A stretch of DNA of 63,899 bases, filler included, from Collodictyon triciliatum (Eukaryota): NCBI GenBank assembly GCA_043381765.1. It is 10 parts of 10 records of this genome, joined end to end, with 100 filler letters (N's around TTAATTAATTAA, not from the genome) between each part and the next. Parts side by side here need not be neighbours in the genome. Positions count along the whole stretch, not along the records: positions 59,428 to 63,899 come from JBHJMP010004504.1; 9 more parts are not named here. The stretch is one strand, 5' to 3'. The notes below the pieces were generated by a model. The model was not told where the DNA came from. It did no database searches and worked only from the letters and a program-made list of their open reading frames with translations. A program made the position numbers and the translations under genes. Positions 56,201-63,899 of the stretch are shown piece by piece; position 1 is the first letter of the stretch; each line of letters starts with the position of its first letter.

Positions 56201-57860
56201 AAAAATGGCAAATTACCTCAGTTTTTTTTCTCTCATGAATTTTTTTCCTTTATTCGATTCAAAACTGCTCTTTTTTCTCTCAGGAAATATTGCCCATGAA
56301 GTCGATCTCCACGATAACGGCCAACGAGTCAACCATCGAAGTAACTACAGAAGACGACCGAGAAGTACTTTATTATTGATTTCATTATCATTATTTCGTC
56401 CTCGTCCATCTTTTCCACAATTATTTTCATATTCAGGAAGAGGGTTACCTTGCATGAGAAATATATTCCCCATCCCATTCTGGGTTTCCCTCTCTTTTCT
56501 TCATGTAATTTATGCGATGACATTGGTGACTCTGGGTTGTCTCTTTCATATCCATAGTACATCTTTACAAATATGGAGAACGTGAAGGAAGCCTACGAAA
56601 AAATATTGGGTGCGTGGAGGGTTATCAAGGTAGTGATTTATATATTATTGATGCCATTTTGCAAGAAAAAAAAAGCAACTGTGAATCTACATTTCAATAT
56701 ATTTTCAACCTTTTTACTCAAGCTATTTTATTATCCTCTTTTTCATTTACTGCATCTTACCCCGGTTAATCCTTTTTTTTTTATATTTTTTTTTATCAAT
56801 TTAGAAATAATATCATGTTTTTTTTTTTCAACAAACAAATAAACTCGCAGGAATATATTTGTTTCAGCGATATTTGCAACAGCACACTAACCAAGCCATG
56901 CAATTCGACTTTATCACCCAATCACCCATAGGCAAATCGAAATCTAATGCACCGCGGAATTCGCCCCATCGAGCAAGGGAAAAGTGCGTCCAAGGCCGAT
57001 GAAAAAGTCAAGGACAACCTCGAACTGGTGAGCCTCTGAGTCTCATATCTATTCTGATTGTTAAGAAATGCCCCGCCGACGATTCCAAACAGCACTTCTG
57101 CTGCTGTTCCATCCTTTACATCCTTTCCCATCACTCTTTCTCTCCACGAGATGAGCTTGTAAACCACCACCAAAGATTGCCACCTTGTGTTTTCATCAGT
57201 GTGTCACAATTCAATCTAGAATATGAAAGTATTCCACGCTGGTGCAAAACTCGTCACATACTCTCGTGATGACATGATACTGGAGGACGGCAGGTAGAAC
57301 ACATCATCCTCTATACTTTCTTTCTGCATACATGAATCATGAGTCAGGAAAACAGATATGAAAGCACGGCAAAAAAAAAAAAAAAAAACCTCTGAGCAAA
57401 AAACCCCATTTGAAAGCCGCACGCGCTGCCTGTATCAAATCAACAAAGGCCAGGTGCGAGTGCAAAAGGGCATCGGCTCCGAAGCCGTCATCTTCCGTAA
57501 GTTGGGGCCGGGGCAGATTTTCGGGGAGATGTCCTTCTTGGAGCCGATTGCCGCATCAGCTTCCATCGTTGCAGACGAAGTACTTTCACACTTCCCGAGT
57601 GTCGGTTTTGCAGACGAGCATACATAATGTTTATTTGTACTTTTTCCGTCTTCTCTTTTCTTTTCTATTTCTTAATTCATGAAACTGCCGTGCATCCTGT
57701 GCTTTGCTGAATGCAAATCAAATGATGCCGCCAGGACCATGTCGAGGTCTTTGTCATGGAGCGGGCTTATGTGGAATCGCTGCTGCGGATGGACCCCGAA
57801 CTCCCCGGCCGCTTCTACCGCTTCTTGGCCATGAACCTCGCATATCGACTCCGGAAATAA
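53231..57860 (+). CDS. RGS-GRAM-cNMP-GRAM-cNMP multidomain signalling protein, multi-exon, 5' partial
   Basis: RGS: IFAEYIDTGSPYEVNI, IFDKAQ, NSYERFIKS. GRAM: HGSMVLSNLYICF and GYLYVSTNYLSF. cNMP: LYQIARGRVRVE / FFGEISFLEGVPASATV and LYQINKGQVRVQ / IFGEMSFLEPIAASASI. Stop at 57858-57860. Confidence 0.8.
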
Positions 57861-58049
57861 TATTATTGAATGAATAATAAACTAGCAAACTTCTCCTCTC
57901 TCTTTCCGTTCGTTCTATCGCTCCCTTTTCTGGGCACGATTGGAACTTGTCTTTGCTTCGTTTCTCTCGTCTTCGGTTTCGGTCTCGGTTTTGTTTTTGT
58001 TTCTGTCGCTCGTGAGGAACGAACATTCTGGATGAATCGGGCGTAGAAA

Positions 58050-58168
58050 TACCCACAAAACCCCACCAAAAAAAACCCCACCAAAAAAACCCCACCAAAA
58101 ACCCCCCACCAAAAAAACCCCACCAAAAAACCCCACCAAAAAACCCCACCAAAAAACCCCCCACAAAA
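58050..58168. repeat. (AAAAAACCCCACC)n minisatellite just upstream of the UBL gene
   Basis: About nine imperfect units read directly. Confidence 0.9.
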
Positions 58169-58189
58169 CAACTGTTAGGTGATTCACAC

Positions 58190-59192
58190 ATGTCGGGCGA
58201 TCAGGTCAAGATCCAAATCAAATGCCTCGAATCCGCCAATATTCAGCTGGAGGTACCTCGCAACGTGAGTGGTTTCCTTTCTATATTCTGCTTAACTAAC
58301 TCTACACTTCTGCGGTTCATTTTTAACAAGCCGATCGACTTTATCCTGCCCTCAGATCTCTGTCCCAGAGTTGAAGAGGCTGATCCATGAAAAGTCTGGA
58401 ATCCCTGTGCAGACGCAAAGACTGATTTTCCGAGGCCGAGTTCTCAAAGACACTCAGGACCTAACTGCTTTTCGTGCGTATATTGCTCTTTGGGACATAT
58501 ACAATTCAATAAGCCTATGTCATGCATACTTCTGGACATACTTTTTCCATGTGATTGTATATATTTGAACCTTTAACATCCTCTGGTAAAAATGCAAACA
58601 CCGAAAATCAGAAATCGAAGATGGAACCACTTTGCATCTTGTTACACGTCCTCCAGAAGCAGATACACCGGCTCCTTCTGCTTCTGCTTCTGCTTCGCCA
58701 TCTGCATCAGCAAATACTCGTCAAGTGCCCAACCCTGCACAGTACCAGCCAACTCATCCCCACAACGCACACCCTCGTAAGTTGTCACATGCACAGTCAT
58801 CCATCATTGATGCCATGAATTAATTCTTGGCCGGTGCATGACCTAATTATTCACGTTAATATGCTGCTCATGTCTTCAGATGTATTTTTGTATTGTATTA
58901 TACATATATTTGCAGTTATCTGTAAAAGTTCCTAACTCAAGCTTGTAGTGCCTTAATGAATAACACATATATTACATACAAATTGCGCATTTTAGCTCGC
59001 TGATTTCTTCCTCCTCCTACCATATCCTTTTTTCTTCTTTCTCTATTAGCCCATCCGCAGTTTACTTATATGCCAGTACCTGGCGGTCTTCCCGGAATGA
59101 TGATGGGCACTGTGCAAATACCGGACAACGGAAATCCTGATATCAACCAAATCATGAGTTCAGTACTTCAATCTGTCGGCCTCGGAAATATG
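58190..59192 (+). CDS. N-terminal ubiquitin-like domain protein (BAG6/CIP73-like), 3' truncated
   Basis: VKIQIKCL, ELKRLIHEKSGIPVQTQRLIFRGRVLKD and IEDGTTLHLVTRPP, then a Pro/Ser-rich linker and MMMGTV...DINQIMSSVL. Confidence 0.72.
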
Positions 59193-59227
59193 GTTCCATT
59201 TATTCTGATCCACCCTCCATAGAAATT

Positions 59228-59327
59228 AAAATAAACCAAATAAACCAAATAAACCAAATAAACCAAATAAACCAAATAAACCAAATAAACCAAATAAACC
59301 AAATAAACCAAATAAACCAAATAAACC
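59228..59327. repeat. (AAATAAACC)n repeat at contig end
   Basis: Direct reading. Confidence 0.95.
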
Positions 59328-59427
59328 NNNNNNNNNNNNNNNNNNNNNNNNNNNNNNNNNNNNNNNNNNNNTTAATTAATTAANNNNNNNNNNNNNNNNN
59401 NNNNNNNNNNNNNNNNNNNNNNNNNNN

Positions 59428-59520
59428 GTAGTAATTTGGCTTTCAGCTAATCGCGTTTTTTAGTGGCCAAGCCAGCAGCAGGAACAATATTCCCCAAACT
59501 GCGTTAAGCCCCAGAACGTT
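59428..59520 (+). repeat. attC-like site, family A, copy 1 (3' half; contig starts inside it)
   Basis: Ends CCCAAACTGCGTTAAGCCCCAGAACGTT with GTT at 59518-59520. Confidence 0.88.
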
Positions 59521-59535
59521 AGCGGCAACCTTAAT

Positions 59536-60459
59536 ATGACAAACCCTCCTAGAAACCACCACTACGTGCCTCAATGTTATTTGAATTCTTTTACAAACTC
59601 CCAAAAGAAATTTTGGAAGATGCGTATTGATAATAATAGGATTTCAGAAACTATGCCTGTTAAGGTCTGCTATGAAATTGATTCAAATCGATTTAGAAAC
59701 AAGCAATTACTAGAAATAAATAATCTTGACGATGAATATTTCATCGAAAAACACTCCTTTAAAATTCAGGAAAATAATTTTAGTAAAGCTCTTCATGAAT
59801 TAATCAAGTTCAAAAAAGAGCAAATAATAATTGATAAAACAAGGCACCAAATTTTTCTTGAAACACTGGTTACTATAAAGAGAAGGAATCCCGATTCAAG
59901 AAACAAAATAATTCAAGTTTTTAAGGAAAGCTATCAAACTCAGGAGGGCATTCAAAAATTTTTAGAATTTTTTTTAGAAGAATCGGGCAATCAAAAGATT
60001 ACTCCAGAGATCAAAATTAATATAAAGAATTTTCTTGCAAACGAGTCACAGGATCCCAATCGTCTTCATGATATGTATCTTAGTGCTTACTTGAACAAGG
60101 TCGATTATACAACGATTGCCAATATAACCCGTGATTTCTATCATTTAAAGCAATATATACTCCATACTCCTATAGGTCAACAGTTTATAACTTCAGACAA
60201 TCCCGGTTTTACATTAGCGGGCAATACAATCATTAGTCTTGGCGGTTTAGGAGGTCGATTTGAATTTTATTTTCCGCTTTCGCCAACAACCTGTCTTTAT
60301 CTGAAATCAACAGATATAGAGCAAACCGATGCTATCGAAAAAATAATATATCCAGTGATGATTAACAAGTCTGACGTAACCCAAATCAATAAAGCAACAA
60401 AATCAATAAGCATGAAAAATGTTTTTGCTTATAATAAGGAAACACTAGAAAAATTGTAG
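59536..60459 (+). CDS. DUF4238 domain protein (cassette 1)
   Basis: N-terminal HHYVPQCYL, FITSDNP and YFPLSP motifs; 307 aa, intronless. Confidence 0.85.
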   Translation: MTNPPRNHHYVPQCYLNSFTNSQKKFWKMRIDNNRISETMPVKVCYEIDSNRFRNKQLLEINNLDDEYFIEKHSFKIQENNFSKALHELIKFKKEQIIIDKTRHQIFLETLVTIKRRNPDSRNKIIQVFKESYQTQEGIQKFLEFFLEESGNQKITPEIKINIKNFLANESQDPNRLHDMYLSAYLNKVDYTTIANITRDFYHLKQYILHTPIGQQFITSDNPGFTLAGNTIISLGGLGGRFEFYFPLSPTTCLYLKSTDIEQTDAIEKIIYPVMINKSDVTQINKATKSISMKNVFAYNKETLEKL

Positions 60460-60468
60460 GCAGCCGCT

Positions 60469-60627
60469 AACAATAGGCTTTACGCAATTTGGGTTTCAGT
60501 AATGGCCAATCAGCTTTGGTAGTGCTAATCAACTGTAGTAATTTGGCTTTCAGCTAATCGCGTTTTTTAGTGGCCAAGCCGGCAGCAGGAACAATATTCC
60601 CCAAACTGCGTTAAGCCCCAGAACGTT
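60469..60627 (+). repeat. attC-like site, family A, copy 2 (159 bp from AAC to GTT)
   Basis: AACAATAGGCTTTACGCAATTTGGG...CCCAAACTGCGTTAAGCCCCAGAACGTT; arms 15/17 complementary. Confidence 0.9.
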
Positions 60628-60639
60628 GTGCGCAATTTT

Positions 60640-61257
60640 ATGAACCCTGTACGTTTAGAAGATACTATAAAATTTTTGAAGGATAATATCGATCCACTTG
60701 AAGATATTGCATATGGTCCTGGCTATAGAGCTTCAGTATTTTTATTAGATGGTACATATTTGCCATGCGTCATTTTCCGAAATTCTAAAACAATAATTGA
60801 CTTAGCTATAAATCGGTTTAAAAAAGAGCAGACAGCCAACAATTTATTTCAAAGGTTTTCAAATCGTAAATATAGAGAAGCTGTAAAGACATTTGTTGCT
60901 AGTGGTAATAGTATAAAACTTAGTGATATTGGAAAGGTCCAAAAAAGTCGTTTTGCTTTTCCAATAAGTATCCACAATCAAATAAAGGGAGAAACTGCAA
61001 TGAGTTGGACTGCATTTGTTGCAAAATTCAAAGATGGAAGATTCCTTAGTTTTGGTACAACTTGGAATTGGGAATTTTTTGATTTGCCTGAAAATTATCT
61101 TGTAGAGGATATTATTGAAATAATAAATCATAGCTATATAACAAAAACAGGCGAGATTATTCGACACGGATCTATAGATAGGGCACTTCAATGGGATAAA
61201 TTAGAAACAATTCATAGACCACGTCAATTTTTTGATTGTTATTTAGATCATTTGTAA
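60640..61257 (+). CDS. Hypothetical protein (cassette 2), 205 aa
   Basis: ORF fills the cassette; ATG 60640 preferred over GTG 60628, which lies inside the recombination core. Confidence 0.8.
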   Translation: MNPVRLEDTIKFLKDNIDPLEDIAYGPGYRASVFLLDGTYLPCVIFRNSKTIIDLAINRFKKEQTANNLFQRFSNRKYREAVKTFVASGNSIKLSDIGKVQKSRFAFPISIHNQIKGETAMSWTAFVAKFKDGRFLSFGTTWNWEFFDLPENYLVEDIIEIINHSYITKTGEIIRHGSIDRALQWDKLETIHRPRQFFDCYLDHL

Positions 61258-61289
61258 CATGACTTAAATGAAAATATAATACTGCGCAC

Positions 61290-61448
61290 AACAATAGGCT
61301 TTACGCAATTTGGGTTTTAGCAATGGCCCATCAGCTTTGGTAGTGCTAATCAACTGTAGTAATTTGGCTTTCAGCTAATCGCGTTTTTTAGTGGCCAAGC
61401 CAGCAGCAGGAACAACTTTCCCCAAACTGCGTTAAGCCCCAGAACGTT
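61290..61448 (+). repeat. attC-like site, family A, copy 3 (159 bp)
   Basis: Same arms as copy 2, with a few central substitutions. Confidence 0.9.
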
Positions 61449-61474
61449 AGCTGTAATTTTTAAATAGAATCTGT

Positions 61475-62326
61475 ATGAAAAACCTCTTAGTATTTCTTAC
61501 TACAATTATTTCTTTTAATTCTTTGTCTCAAACAGTAAGCAAATCAAAATATGGAGACAATTCTTCAATAGGAAAATATGCAAACATTAGAGGGATTAAA
61601 ATGTATTATGAAATATATGGGACAGGAGAACCTATATTGTTAATTCATGGTAACAGCGGCTCCATAACTGACATGACTAATCAAATTGAATATTTTTCTA
61701 AGAAATACAAAGTCATTGTTGCGGATAGCCGAGATCATGGCAAAACATTAGACACATTGAGTATGACTGACACACTGAGTTATGAGATGATGGCTGATGA
61801 CTATAATTCTTTATTAGATTTTTTACAAGTTGACTCTGTTAATGTTATTGGTTGGAGTGATGGAGGCATAAATGGACTTTTATTAGCCATGAATCATCCG
61901 AGAAAAGTGAAAAAACTTGTGTCAATGGGAGCAAACCTTTGGTCTGACACAACTGCGCTTGATCCATTCTTTCATAACATTTTCAAGATGCAATATTCAA
62001 TGATGCAAAAAAGACCAATGACAACTGAAAATAAGGTCATTCTTAGACACTATAAATTAATTATGACACAACCTAATATTTCGACGCAACAATTAAAGAA
62101 AATTAAGTGCCCTACATTGGTTGTAGCTGGCGACCATGATGCTGTTAAAGTTCAACATACAGCACTAATTGCTCAAAGCATACCTAATTCAAATTTATGG
62201 ATAGCGCCAAATGCTGGACATGGATTAATGGTATTTCAATATAAAGACAAATTTAACACAGAGGTCGAGGACTTTTTTAATAGAAAGTTTAAGAAGATTC
62301 AAGGATACGATATGTTCAAAAACTAA
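61475..62326 (+). CDS. Secreted alpha/beta hydrolase (cassette 3)
   Basis: Signal-peptide-like N-terminus, LLIHGN, GWSDGG nucleophile elbow, GDHD and AGH. Confidence 0.9.
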   Translation: MKNLLVFLTTIISFNSLSQTVSKSKYGDNSSIGKYANIRGIKMYYEIYGTGEPILLIHGNSGSITDMTNQIEYFSKKYKVIVADSRDHGKTLDTLSMTDTLSYEMMADDYNSLLDFLQVDSVNVIGWSDGGINGLLLAMNHPRKVKKLVSMGANLWSDTTALDPFFHNIFKMQYSMMQKRPMTTENKVILRHYKLIMTQPNISTQQLKKIKCPTLVVAGDHDAVKVQHTALIAQSIPNSNLWIAPNAGHGLMVFQYKDKFNTEVEDFFNRKFKKIQGYDMFKN

Positions 62327-62336
62327 AACTACAGCT

Positions 62337-62495
62337 AACAATAGGCTTTACGCAATTTGGGTTTCAGCAATGGCCCTTCAGCTTTGGTAGTACTAATCAA
62401 CTGAAGTAATTTGGCTTTCAGCTAATCGCGTTTTTTATTGGCCAAGCCAGCAGCAGGAACAATATTTCCCAAACTGCGTTAAGCCCCAGAACGTT
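62337..62495 (+). repeat. attC-like site, family A, copy 4 (159 bp)
   Basis: Same arms as copy 2. Confidence 0.9.
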
Positions 62496-62685
62496 ATCAG
62501 CTACTCAGCTGCGGCGCAGATCCCGGCTGTGGGTTTGGTTACCTTGGGCAAAAGAGCGAATGATTATTCAAGGCGGCTTTAATCAACCCAGCTATTGAAC
62601 AAGGCTGAACAGGATAGCAGTATTATTAATGGAGTCTCTAATAATTTCTAGAGAGCGATTAATATAAATTCAATGAGCAGCTTAT
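62496..62685. other. ORF-less cassette 4, 190-bp unique region with several inverted repeats (candidate ncRNA)
   Basis: Ends GTTATCAGCTACTCA / TGAGCAGCTTATAAC complementary at 13/15; no ORF of 60 aa or more; internal stems. Confidence 0.7.
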
Positions 62686-62844
62686 AACAATAGGCTTTAC
62701 GCAATTTGGGTTTCATCAATGGCCCATCAGCTTTGGTAGTGCTAATCAACTGTAGTAATTTGGCTTTCAGCTAATCGCGTTTTTTAGTGGCCAAGCCAGC
62801 AGCAGGAACAACTTTCCCCAAACTGCGTTAAGCCCCAGAACGTT
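62686..62844 (+). repeat. attC-like site, family A, copy 5 (159 bp)
   Basis: Same arms as copy 2. Confidence 0.9.
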
Positions 62845-62856
62845 GTACGAAATTCT

Positions 62857-63537
62857 ATGAAAGACCCTAAAAATATATTGGCTTTTTTTATCCCATATTT
62901 AACCATATGTGGGGTTCTCTACAATCTAGCTTTTTGGGAAACATTTGGACTTAATGGACTAGAACATATTGATATTTCTAAAATAATTCAATCCTCAATT
63001 TACCCAATTTATTCATCATTATTTTTCATCATAATTCTTATTTATAGCCGACTTGAAAAACACTTGGTTGAAACAGTCGACATAAATGGTACTAATATTG
63101 TTTTTTCAAAAACATGGAAACGAAATTTATTTTTTATTATTTGGGCCATAGCTTCTACTATTATCTATCAGCATGACTTTATGCCATTCCGATGGCAGGC
63201 TTTTAGCTTTGTTGTTTCGTTAATGCCTACTATTCAAATTTTTGAAACCAAAATACTTATAAAAACTTTTCCTAAAAACTTATCTAGATTGTATATAATA
63301 TTTATAGTATGTTTTGGTATATCAATATCATACGGCTCTGGTAAATATCAAAGTGAATTAATTTTTAGCAACAAAAAATATAAATACATAATCAGTAATC
63401 CATCTAACCTAAAAAGCGACACTTTAAAACTTATTGGATCATCTGATAAAGATTTTTTCTTTACAGACATAAATAATCGAAAAACAATTATAATAAAAGA
63501 AAGAATGATTGATACGTTGATTTTATTTGACAAATAA
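62857..63537 (+). CDS. Hypothetical integral membrane protein (cassette 5)
   Basis: 226-aa ORF with about five hydrophobic segments filling the cassette. Confidence 0.8.
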   Translation: MKDPKNILAFFIPYLTICGVLYNLAFWETFGLNGLEHIDISKIIQSSIYPIYSSLFFIIILIYSRLEKHLVETVDINGTNIVFSKTWKRNLFFIIWAIASTIIYQHDFMPFRWQAFSFVVSLMPTIQIFETKILIKTFPKNLSRLYIIFIVCFGISISYGSGKYQSELIFSNKKYKYIISNPSNLKSDTLKLIGSSDKDFFFTDINNRKTIIIKERMIDTLILFDK

Positions 63538-63548
63538 TAACTTCGTAC

Positions 63549-63738
63549 AACAAAAGGTTTGGCGTTATGTCTGCTTGACGAATTAATCATCAACAACAAA
63601 TCGCTAATCAACTGTTGTTCTCAGCTTACCTTACGCTATTGGGCTGACAATTTTTACAATCAACTAATTATCTTTACTCAACACCAGTTCCAAGCTTGAC
63701 AGAACGCTATGCAGCCACAACGCCAAGCCTCGAACGTT
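63549..63738 (+). repeat. attC-like site, family B (190 bp, different sequence, same architecture)
   Basis: AACAAAAGGTTTGGCGTTATGTCTGC...GCAGCCACAACGCCAAGCCTCGAACGTT; arms 16/19 complementary. Confidence 0.82.
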
Positions 63739-63761
63739 GCCTGCAATATTAAACAACTGGT

Positions 63762-63899
63762 ATGAGAATTTTCCTAATAGTCTTTCTACTTCCCCTTCTT
63801 TCACATGGGCAAATAATTTACAAAGCCAAAATCATAAGTTCAACAACAAAGCAAAGTGTTCCTTATGCGACAGTCGCTTTATTGAGAGCAAATATTGGA
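63762..63899 (+). CDS. Secreted protein with carboxypeptidase-regulatory-like domain (cassette 6), runs off window
   Basis: MRIFLIVFLLPLLSHGQIIYKAKIISSTTKQSVPYATVALLRANIG: signal peptide plus the G.I.D..T..P.PYATV-type start common in Bacteroidota. Confidence 0.65.
   Translation, partial: MRIFLIVFLLPLLSHGQIIYKAKIISSTTKQSVPYATVALLRANIG

Follow-up and report, generated by a model that had tools for sequence, protein, structure and literature searches.

What kind of element carries the six co-oriented units at positions 59428-63899 of this DNA, and which enzyme would move them? The units lie in the last contig of a 63,899-nucleotide stretch deposited under Collodictyon triciliatum, the whole of which is called the window here. 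This contig is part of a mobile gene cassette array, probably chromosomal, whose source is a freshwater bacterium similar to Sediminibacterium (Chitinophagaceae, Bacteroidota). Its cassettes are discrete units with exact GTT boundaries and covarying ends, and the array is probably an integron-like cassette system, in which long folded sites would be acted on by a tyrosine recombinase without the insertion typical of integron integrases (IntI). We infer from related genomes that the recombination is performed by the enzyme whose gene is linked to such arrays.

The hexamer AACGTT occurs exactly six times in 59428-63899, placing GTT at 59518, 60625, 61446, 62493, 62842 and 63736, and all six occurrences coincide with the unit junctions that an earlier examination of this DNA (the sequence-only reading) had put forward. 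Its description of co-oriented units with any open reading frame (ORF) near the start, separated by near-identical repeats, was borne out as well: five cassettes have a + strand ORF 3-29 nt after GTT, cassette 4 has none, and the repeats comprise four complete 159-nt sites, a fifth cut at 59428 and one site of 190 nt. The sites resemble attC, the recombination site of integron cassettes. The window strings together contigs of ~6.6 kb by nine linkers in all, the last of them directly ahead of the array contig, which starts inside a repeat and continues past the window's end; DNA before 59328 comes from other contigs and has no bearing on this one. The contig preceding that linker (57754-59327) does not look bacterial: it contains CCCCACC(A)n and (AAATAAACC)n microsatellites, and one of its short ORFs includes a ubiquitin-like fragment (QRLIFRGRVLKD). 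Contigs of different organisms appear to be mixed in the window. The features of the array contig are as follows.

59328-59427, no strand: linker, runs of N around TTAATTAATTAA; the array contig begins at 59428.
59428-59520, + strand: attC-like site of the 159-nt type, 3' part only, ending ...CCCCAGAAC|GTT; it covers positions 68-157 of the profile hidden Markov model (HMM) of the site (E 4e-23).
59519-60625, + strand: cassette 1, with an ORF at 59536-60459 for 307 amino acids (aa), DUF4238 (PF14022, E 3.6e-37), and its own attC-like site at 60469-60627.
60626-61446, + strand: cassette 2, with an ORF at 60628-61257 for 209 aa without a Pfam family and an attC-like site at 61290-61448.
61447-62493, + strand: cassette 3, with an ORF at 61475-62326 for 283 aa, alpha/beta hydrolase (PF00561, E 2.7e-22), and an attC-like site at 62337-62495.
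62494-62842, + strand: cassette 4, with a 193-nt cargo without an ORF and an attC-like site at 62686-62844.
62843-63736, + strand: cassette 5, with an ORF at 62857-63537 for a hydrophobic product of 226 aa without a Pfam family and a 190-nt attC-like site at 63549-63738.
63737-63899, + strand: cassette 6, start only, with an ORF from 63762 that runs off the window.

The four complete 159-nt sites, measured from AAC to GTT, are 87-100% alike, while the 190-nt site belongs to another class, whose resemblance to them is confined to the ends and a central motif. No copy was detected by the site HMM in the window outside 59428-63899, and a structural scan (AAC, spacer, 14-nt arm pairing, spacer, GTT) placed all five full sites of the window on the + strand and none on the - strand. 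When cassette starts were compared with R'' ends in a matrix, the own-end combinations gave 9, 10, 10, 5 and 10 contiguous paired bases (the value 5 standing for nine of the first ten bases paired, with a single mismatch), against 3-6 for all others. Cassette 1, for example, starts with GTTAGCGGC, which is complementary to its own R'' flank GCCGCTAAC, and cassette 2 pairs with its own end over 10 nt. The earlier statement that each start matches its own end and not those of its neighbours therefore holds; of the 13-17 paired nucleotides proposed for the R ends, the long pairing remains, and the actual extent is 9-10 contiguous pairs, one mismatch and a few further pairs. The sites were also correctly described as exceeding classical attC sites in length, with 159 and 190 nt in the window against a range of ~57-141 nt quoted in the sequence-only reading; relatives also have a 124-nt class. 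We confirm the observation of a cassette array as real and well beyond chance. Pfam names only two of the window ORF products, the DUF4238 protein and the alpha/beta hydrolase, the latter with a signal-like N-terminus.

The pairing recurs in related genomes. At least seven contiguous bases pair between cassette start and own end in 22 of 28 cassettes, compared with 28 of 756 non-own pairs. At its position 11 every one of the 28 cassette starts has A, which is opposed by C in the own R'' flank in 23 cassettes (counts read by eye from the pairing output); pairing often continues beyond this mismatch, and in our own reading of the same output some cassettes have a one-base bulge in the R stem. 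Further inside the site, an 18-bp L stem was followed through 46 aligned sites. Six of its pairs are altered on both sides, and none of 500 shuffles reached the observed values. RNAalifold, applied to the top-strand alignment, returned local hairpins and not this long-range stem, so covariation was counted on an L stem named by hand from the same sequences, which favours that stem. One position of it is A.C in 46 of 46 sites, corresponding to G.T on the opposite strand, and no bulge, such as the extrahelical base of the attC L box, occurs in the L stem of these sites. A distant genome (G044) has four sites of ~188 nt whose L-arm sequences are very different and still pair, and its cassette ends likewise show 10 pairs, then A against C, then further pairs. 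As judged from these alignments, pairing in both the R and the L part is under selection.

Folding with DNA parameters, each site being joined in silico to its own cassette start, gave the same layout for every circularised window site: an R stem of 10 bp, an internal loop with 4 nt facing 6-7 nt, a long L stem and a large central part. The bottom strand was more stable than the top strand in four of the five. The centre of the 159-type site (alignment columns 70-120, e.g. window 60537-60590; ...AGTAATTTGGCTTT.AGCTAATCG...TAGTGGCCAAGCCAGCAG) is conserved across species to a greater degree than the stems and folds into an invariant small hairpin, unlike the variable centre of classical attC; the conservation hints at an additional binding site. 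A search of the array against Rfam at E up to 10 returned only snoR120 and MIR9783, both at chance level, and whether Rfam holds an attC family was left unchecked.

Cassette 4 provides the clearest view of a unit in different surroundings. Copies with 91% identity are present in S. salmoneum (two) and in Aquirufa rosea CAR-16 (one), each with different neighbours. Homology begins exactly at GTT in every context, behind three classes of upstream site, and stops after ...AAC G, where three different continuations follow; with the window included, the boundaries are exact in four contexts from three organisms. Such discrete units with exact GTT boundaries are what integron cassettes are. Public sequencing runs were examined as assembled contigs, run X1, possibly the source sample, not being counted as independent; uncovered parts of the array in X2, X3 and X5 were given no weight, and 18 runs with small shares were left out. 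In run X5 (lake water, from another study), homology to cassette 3 starts exactly at 61446 in record 26, with unrelated DNA before it, and another contig bridges 62361 to 62711 (side 101), so cassette 4 is absent there. The copies of the cassette 4 cargo (window 62493-62685; L088 10645-10837; L087 19609-19801; L060 7006-7198) are ~91% identical, and this ORF-less element of 193 nt is kept in three organisms of different genera; contigs from runs X2 and X3 contain it as well. With an RNA fold z-score of only -1.85, a role as a small RNA or as a regulatory element is conceivable.

The sequence-only reading had suggested looking for arrays in other genomes with the repeat, and these were found in Sediminibacterium and further Chitinophagaceae. 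Searching genome_contigs for an exact 22-mer from the site gave 0 loci, and an exact 20-mer gave one 1456-nt contig (L001) in metagenome_contigs, in which the same site sits between two toxin-antitoxin cassettes, PemK-like and ParDE. The array had zero blastn matches among plasmids. A degenerate pattern of the 5' end and the central motif returned 66 loci in genome_contigs, mostly from Sediminibacterium, Chitinophagaceae and Sphingobacteriia; Sediminibacterium sp. C3 and S. salmoneum NBRC 103935, both cultured, are among them. By BLAST, 63 copies of the 159-type site were located in five genomes (G001-G005, C3 being G001), and the structural scan distinguished three length classes in the genomes of ~124, ~158 and ~189 nt. 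With a relaxed scan, the array of G003 extends from 989897 to at least 1016758 with ~25 sites, and 30 sites were counted in S. salmoneum from 3152553 to 3245340. The G003 cargo (HigBA, ParDE, PIN, Mrr) is typical for sedentary integrons. In G005 (contig C22, 132331-195590), one strand carries all 18 copies of the 159-type site, which span 63 kb and flank the recombinase gene (~155 kb) on both sides, a layout that suggests two tandem arrays or a second platform past 195 kb.

A tyrosine recombinase gene lies upstream of the array and in the same direction in all five genomes. No protein of G001-G005 matches the integron integrase model TIGR02249 above its cut-off, and the best partial matches are encoded directly upstream of the arrays on the same strand (G003 179.8 and G005 179.7 bits against a cut-off of 265), the match being split around model positions 180-239. 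NF040815 (XerA/integron integrase) is the best family (G003 201 and G005 198 bits, cut-off 220), and Pfam assigns PF13495 and PF00589. Compared with the solved IntI4 (2a3v), the recombinase has 25 residues where IntI4 has 65. From the KDR to the HxLRH motif there are 58-61 residues in each of 20 array-type proteins from related genomes, 62-66 in Xer proteins of the same genomes, 59 in a relative linked to IS91, and 100 in nine of nine Bacteroidota proteins that pass TIGR02249; the IntI-type proteins have a ...KYPN...W.WQYVFP stretch within this interval. The difference between 58-61 and 100 residues indicates that the IntI-specific domain is absent from the array-type recombinase. In an AlphaFold model (mean predicted local distance difference test score, pLDDT, 74) the interval consists only of the usual helix, hairpin and helix, and a fold search with this model placed XerA (5hxy) and IntI4 at the top.

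In a quick tree rooted on the XerC/D-like proteins of the same genomes, 19 of the 20 array-type proteins form one clade (Shimodaira-Hasegawa approximate likelihood ratio test, SH-aLRT, 94), the IntI-type proteins form a separate clade (100), and a single branch (98) unites both with the relatives linked to IS91 and adjacent to tet(X). G001-G005 also keep separate XerC/D-like genes that lie outside the array-type clade. Both platforms of Sediminibacterium sp. C3 contain a second, divergent recombinase paralogue past the first attC-like site, some kb inside the array (L084 8257-9129 and L082 7405-8278; 32-47% identity, one being split into two pieces).

Behind the recombinase stop codon, five loci from four genomes can be aligned over ~200 nt as far as ...GAGTAGCGTATATTTAAGT|GTT. 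The conservation ends exactly at ...TATATTTAAGT|GTT (AAGT|GTT), after which five different first cassettes begin, and its conserved part contains repeated GACAAT motifs. In G003 the first cassette (Mrr) ends in a 189-nt site whose R'' flank pairs with the cassette's own start. This arrangement of gene, attI-like site and array indicates a platform that runs from recombinase gene to attI to array in one direction; in classical integrons the gene diverges from the array. The sequence-only reading had supposed a distinct system with its recombinase outside the window, and had proposed a search for a tyrosine recombinase and an attI-like site at the 5' end of the array; both were found in the relatives, where the enzyme linked to the array lacks the IntI-specific domain and has an attI-like site of its own at which the first cassette begins.

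The mechanism that we propose starts from promoterless cassettes, each of which would consist of cargo with a recombination site of its own (124, ~159 or ~189 nt) behind it. The single-stranded site would fold into an R stem made of AAC/GTT and 7 cassette-specific pairs, a conserved A facing C and a few more pairs, followed by an asymmetric loop of 4 versus 6-7 nt, the 18-bp L stem and the large conserved centre. Crossover at or beside G|TT would excise and insert cassettes, so that the first bases of a cassette remain complementary to its own end. The enzyme, judging by the five related genomes, would be a two-domain tyrosine recombinase near XerA and IntI without the ~40-residue IntI-specific domain, and its gene would lie upstream of the array in the same direction, followed by the attI-like site of ~200 nt as in the relatives. 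The bottom strand may be the folded substrate, because two conserved top-strand A.C mismatches become G.T pairs on it and its folds are slightly more stable. Recognition may likewise proceed without bulged extrahelical bases, which are absent from the L stem. A 2006 study by MacDonald reportedly has the IntI domain contacting such extrahelical bases, and recognition without them would fit the missing domain.

By the evidence of the relatives, the array would best be filed as one that works like an integron and yet is not a member of the IntI-defined family, the IntI domain, a TIGR02249 match above the cut-off and the bulged base all being absent there. We lean somewhat towards the broader view that Bacteroidota contain a second integron lineage, a gene-capture platform with an IntI/XerA-like recombinase in which the IntI-specific domain was lost or had never been present, long bulge-free sites and its own downstream attI. 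The system may show integrons as they were before IntI gained its special domain.

Several points weigh against the proposed system. Three papers (PMC4792948, PMC9668308, PMC8138268) describe the IntI-specific domain as necessary for integron recombination of folded single-stranded attC, so the activity of a domain-less enzyme on folded sites is only putative. Cury 2016 reports recombinases near attC without intI_Cterm as scattered in the tree, with fewer than three sites adjoining, and states that they "are not IntI". Cassette arrays run by such a domain-less enzyme are not described in the full texts searched, a collection with most subscription journals and supplements outside its scope. 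The choice of strand depends on two wobble positions and small energy differences. No recombinase was found within the window, so the tie to an enzyme without the insertion rests on relatives, and in two of these (G002 and G004, with open frames of 251 and 246 aa) the recombinase gene seems shortened. Neither a circular cassette nor a recombination event was seen among the assembled contigs of public runs; the circular junctions for which the sequence-only reading had proposed PCR or read mapping were thus absent from the run contigs. Where repeat copies are joined in these contigs, the sides measure only 24-40 nt, and no joint corresponds to a circle's expected junction, so nothing was concluded from these joints.

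The link between enzyme and sites also thins out with distance. Of 401 evenly sampled Bacteroidota genomes, 20 (~5%) contain recombinase homologues (E up to 1e-70), and in many of these 20 the contig ends right behind the gene. Repeat scans downstream of the distant homologues were mostly empty. With the strict structural scan, 10 of 15 distant loci (44-72% identity) have at least one same-strand site after the gene, three of these ten consisting of a single far-downstream match or of a match also called on the other strand. Among four loci with more than 10 kb downstream, L103 has no site, L099 and L101 have one each, and L095 has only matches also called on the other strand. The link between recombinase and site is therefore firm only for the Sediminibacterium-like clade and G044. 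Most homologues outside Sediminibacterium (L093, L094, L095, L097, L098, L105, L106) are 355-410 aa long, with an N-terminal extension of ~80-100 aa that carries a motif like L.PL.HR..E.IGI.F, is not named by Pfam and is absent in the Sediminibacterium proteins.

Among other explanations, the one that survives best, though we consider it rather unlikely, is an ordinary integron array, or attC cluster without an integron integrase (CALIN), served by a canonical IntI elsewhere in the host, with the long sites as a lineage-specific attC flavour and the neighbouring recombinase as a bystander. Integrases at the level of TIGR02249 are frequent in the phylum (113 of 401 sampled genomes, many at contig ends), and dense repeats lie beside the integrase at no fewer than three of ten IntI-type loci examined (L118, L119 and L122). 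L122, from genome G197, is a classical divergent integron with 15 attC sites of ~85-114 nt, a bulged base in the L box and an integrase scoring 438.8 bits on TIGR02249, which has the 100-residue interval with the KYPN...WQYVFP motif. Together with a review that counts Bacteroidota among the integron-bearing phyla (PMC8618304), these data contradict the earlier premise of a phylum not known for classical integrons. The proportion of 113 in 401 is far above what the literature on complete genomes suggests; for such genomes, the IntegronFinder 2.0 paper reports mainly In0 in Bacteroidetes (PMC9024848).

Classical Bacteroidota attC moreover have the same geometry as the present sites (AAC-4 nt-L''...L'-8 nt-GTT) with own-end pairing over 9-10 nt, genome G074 carries both kinds of recombinase, and the window has yielded no recombinase. 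A canonical IntI is, however, at odds with the genomes that contain this site family: TIGR02249 is above the cut-off in none of the five, and their arrays start at the conserved attI-like site directly after the gene without the insertion. Conversely, the structural scan for the long-site type gave only two matches at the ten IntI-type loci (L114-L123), and the L stem of the long sites is without the bulged base of the L122 sites.

A relic array, whose sites have lost site-specific recombination and whose mosaic order is the product of homologous recombination between near-identical repeats, is in our estimate still less probable. RecA-type deletion between 159-nt repeats that are 87-100% alike could account for the 349 nt skipped in X5, the shortened recombinase genes look damaged, and circles did not turn up in the run contigs. 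Repeat-mediated exchange leaves unexplained, however, why cassette 4 stands behind three upstream-site classes with homology from the exact GTT. Decay of the sites is also hard to reconcile with own-end pairing that is maintained across cassettes with different R sequences, with L stems that differ in sequence in the distant genome and still pair, and with the intact catalytic RKHRHY-type motifs in the recombinases of G001, G003 and G005.

The last explanation, scattered intergenic repeats like repetitive extragenic palindromic (REP) elements or miniature inverted-repeat transposable elements (MITE), with an incidental cassette pattern, was the genome-wide scatter that the sequence-only reading had named as fatal to its proposal, and it is close to refuted: a few copies do stand apart from the main arrays (G001 at 909958 and 3185785, G002 at 2018262 and 2222874), but 54 of the 63 are clustered and co-oriented in a few stretches beside the recombinase (own tally of the listed places), the six window units are all co-oriented with one ORF or none each, opposite-strand copies are absent from the window and the ends covary strongly with their own cassettes.

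Should the enzyme of the integron-like system preferred here be active, the origin of integrons could be tested in the culturable Sediminibacterium sp. C3 and S. salmoneum NBRC 103935; there would also be a cassette pool that searches based on the integrase would presumably miss, and a second solution to structure-specific DNA recombination would become open to study. Should an ordinary IntI act on the sites, and these be no more than a flavour of attC, the array would remain a valid, though ordinary, example of long attC sites. Arrays of ~25-30 sites by the relaxed scan follow a recombinase with its own attI in several cultured and uncultured Chitinophagaceae, and the presence of the whole platform in culturable strains makes the finding one of note.

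Among known systems, sedentary chromosomal integrons such as the Vibrio superintegron share the most features with the array. Both have co-oriented, mostly promoterless cassettes that each end in an imperfect-palindrome site, a GTT crossover, cassette starts complementary to their own R'' box, an attI beside a tyrosine recombinase gene, toxin-antitoxin and defence cargo, and sites that are homogeneous within a lineage. Here, in contrast, the recombinase is without the IntI-specific domain and fails TIGR02249, its gene is co-oriented with the array and has the attI past its 3' end, and the sites of 159-190 nt have an 18-bp bulge-free L stem and a conserved centre. The classical integron at L122 comes from the same phylum and agrees in the AAC-4 nt-L''...L'-spacer-GTT geometry and in own-end pairing over 9-10 nt; it differs in an integrase that passes TIGR02249, in a gene divergent from the array, and in shorter, bulged sites. 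Integrons of the Treponema denticola type also have integrase gene and array co-oriented. Their integrases are reportedly true IntI with the additional domain, as work by Coleman in 2004 and Boucher in 2007 is said to have found.

XerA and XerC/D, with their dif sites and the Acinetobacter pdif modules, resemble the system in having a simple two-domain tyrosine recombinase, and XerA is the best match by NCBIfam, sequence and fold. Xer acts on short double-stranded dif sites of ~28 bp, unlike the sites here, which are 124-190-nt hairpins with cassette-specific covarying ends. The closest plasmid-borne relatives are tyrosine recombinases associated with IS91 (43.6% identity) and the 'xerD-like' gene adjacent to tet(X) on Acinetobacter plasmids (48-52%), and the short KDR to HxLRH spacing is shared by the IS91-linked one, the only one of them for which it was measured. 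No cassette array or attI-like site is detectable beside these relatives, and one of them is followed by an IS91 transposase. On an Acinetobacter pittii plasmid (L130, NZ_CP040912.1, 83943-86842), a shortened tyrosine-type recombinase with 48% identity lies directly upstream of tet(X5) and estT, and the sequence before tet(X5), ...GCGTATAGCCACTT|GTT followed by 7 nt and A, resembles the attI junction. Searched with blastn-short and the site HMM, the tet(X5) plasmid yielded neither attI-like nor attC-like sites, and a cassette end to match was likewise not found; the 'xerD-like' gene next to tet(X) may be a fragment torn from such a platform.

A final parallel is offered by the group IIC-attC introns. 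In Sediminibacterium, a group II intron with a reverse-transcriptase ORF sits exactly at the 3' junction of the attC-like sites (...AAC|GTGTGTGAC...) at no fewer than six sites in two genomes (L087 ~19960 and L088 10995-12880 in S. salmoneum; also L082, L083/L084 and L092). It scores above the gathering thresholds of Rfam RF01999 and RF00029, and the reverse-transcriptase-like ORF encodes 420 aa. These introns lie in the orientation of the cassettes, whereas classical attC introns lie in the opposite one.

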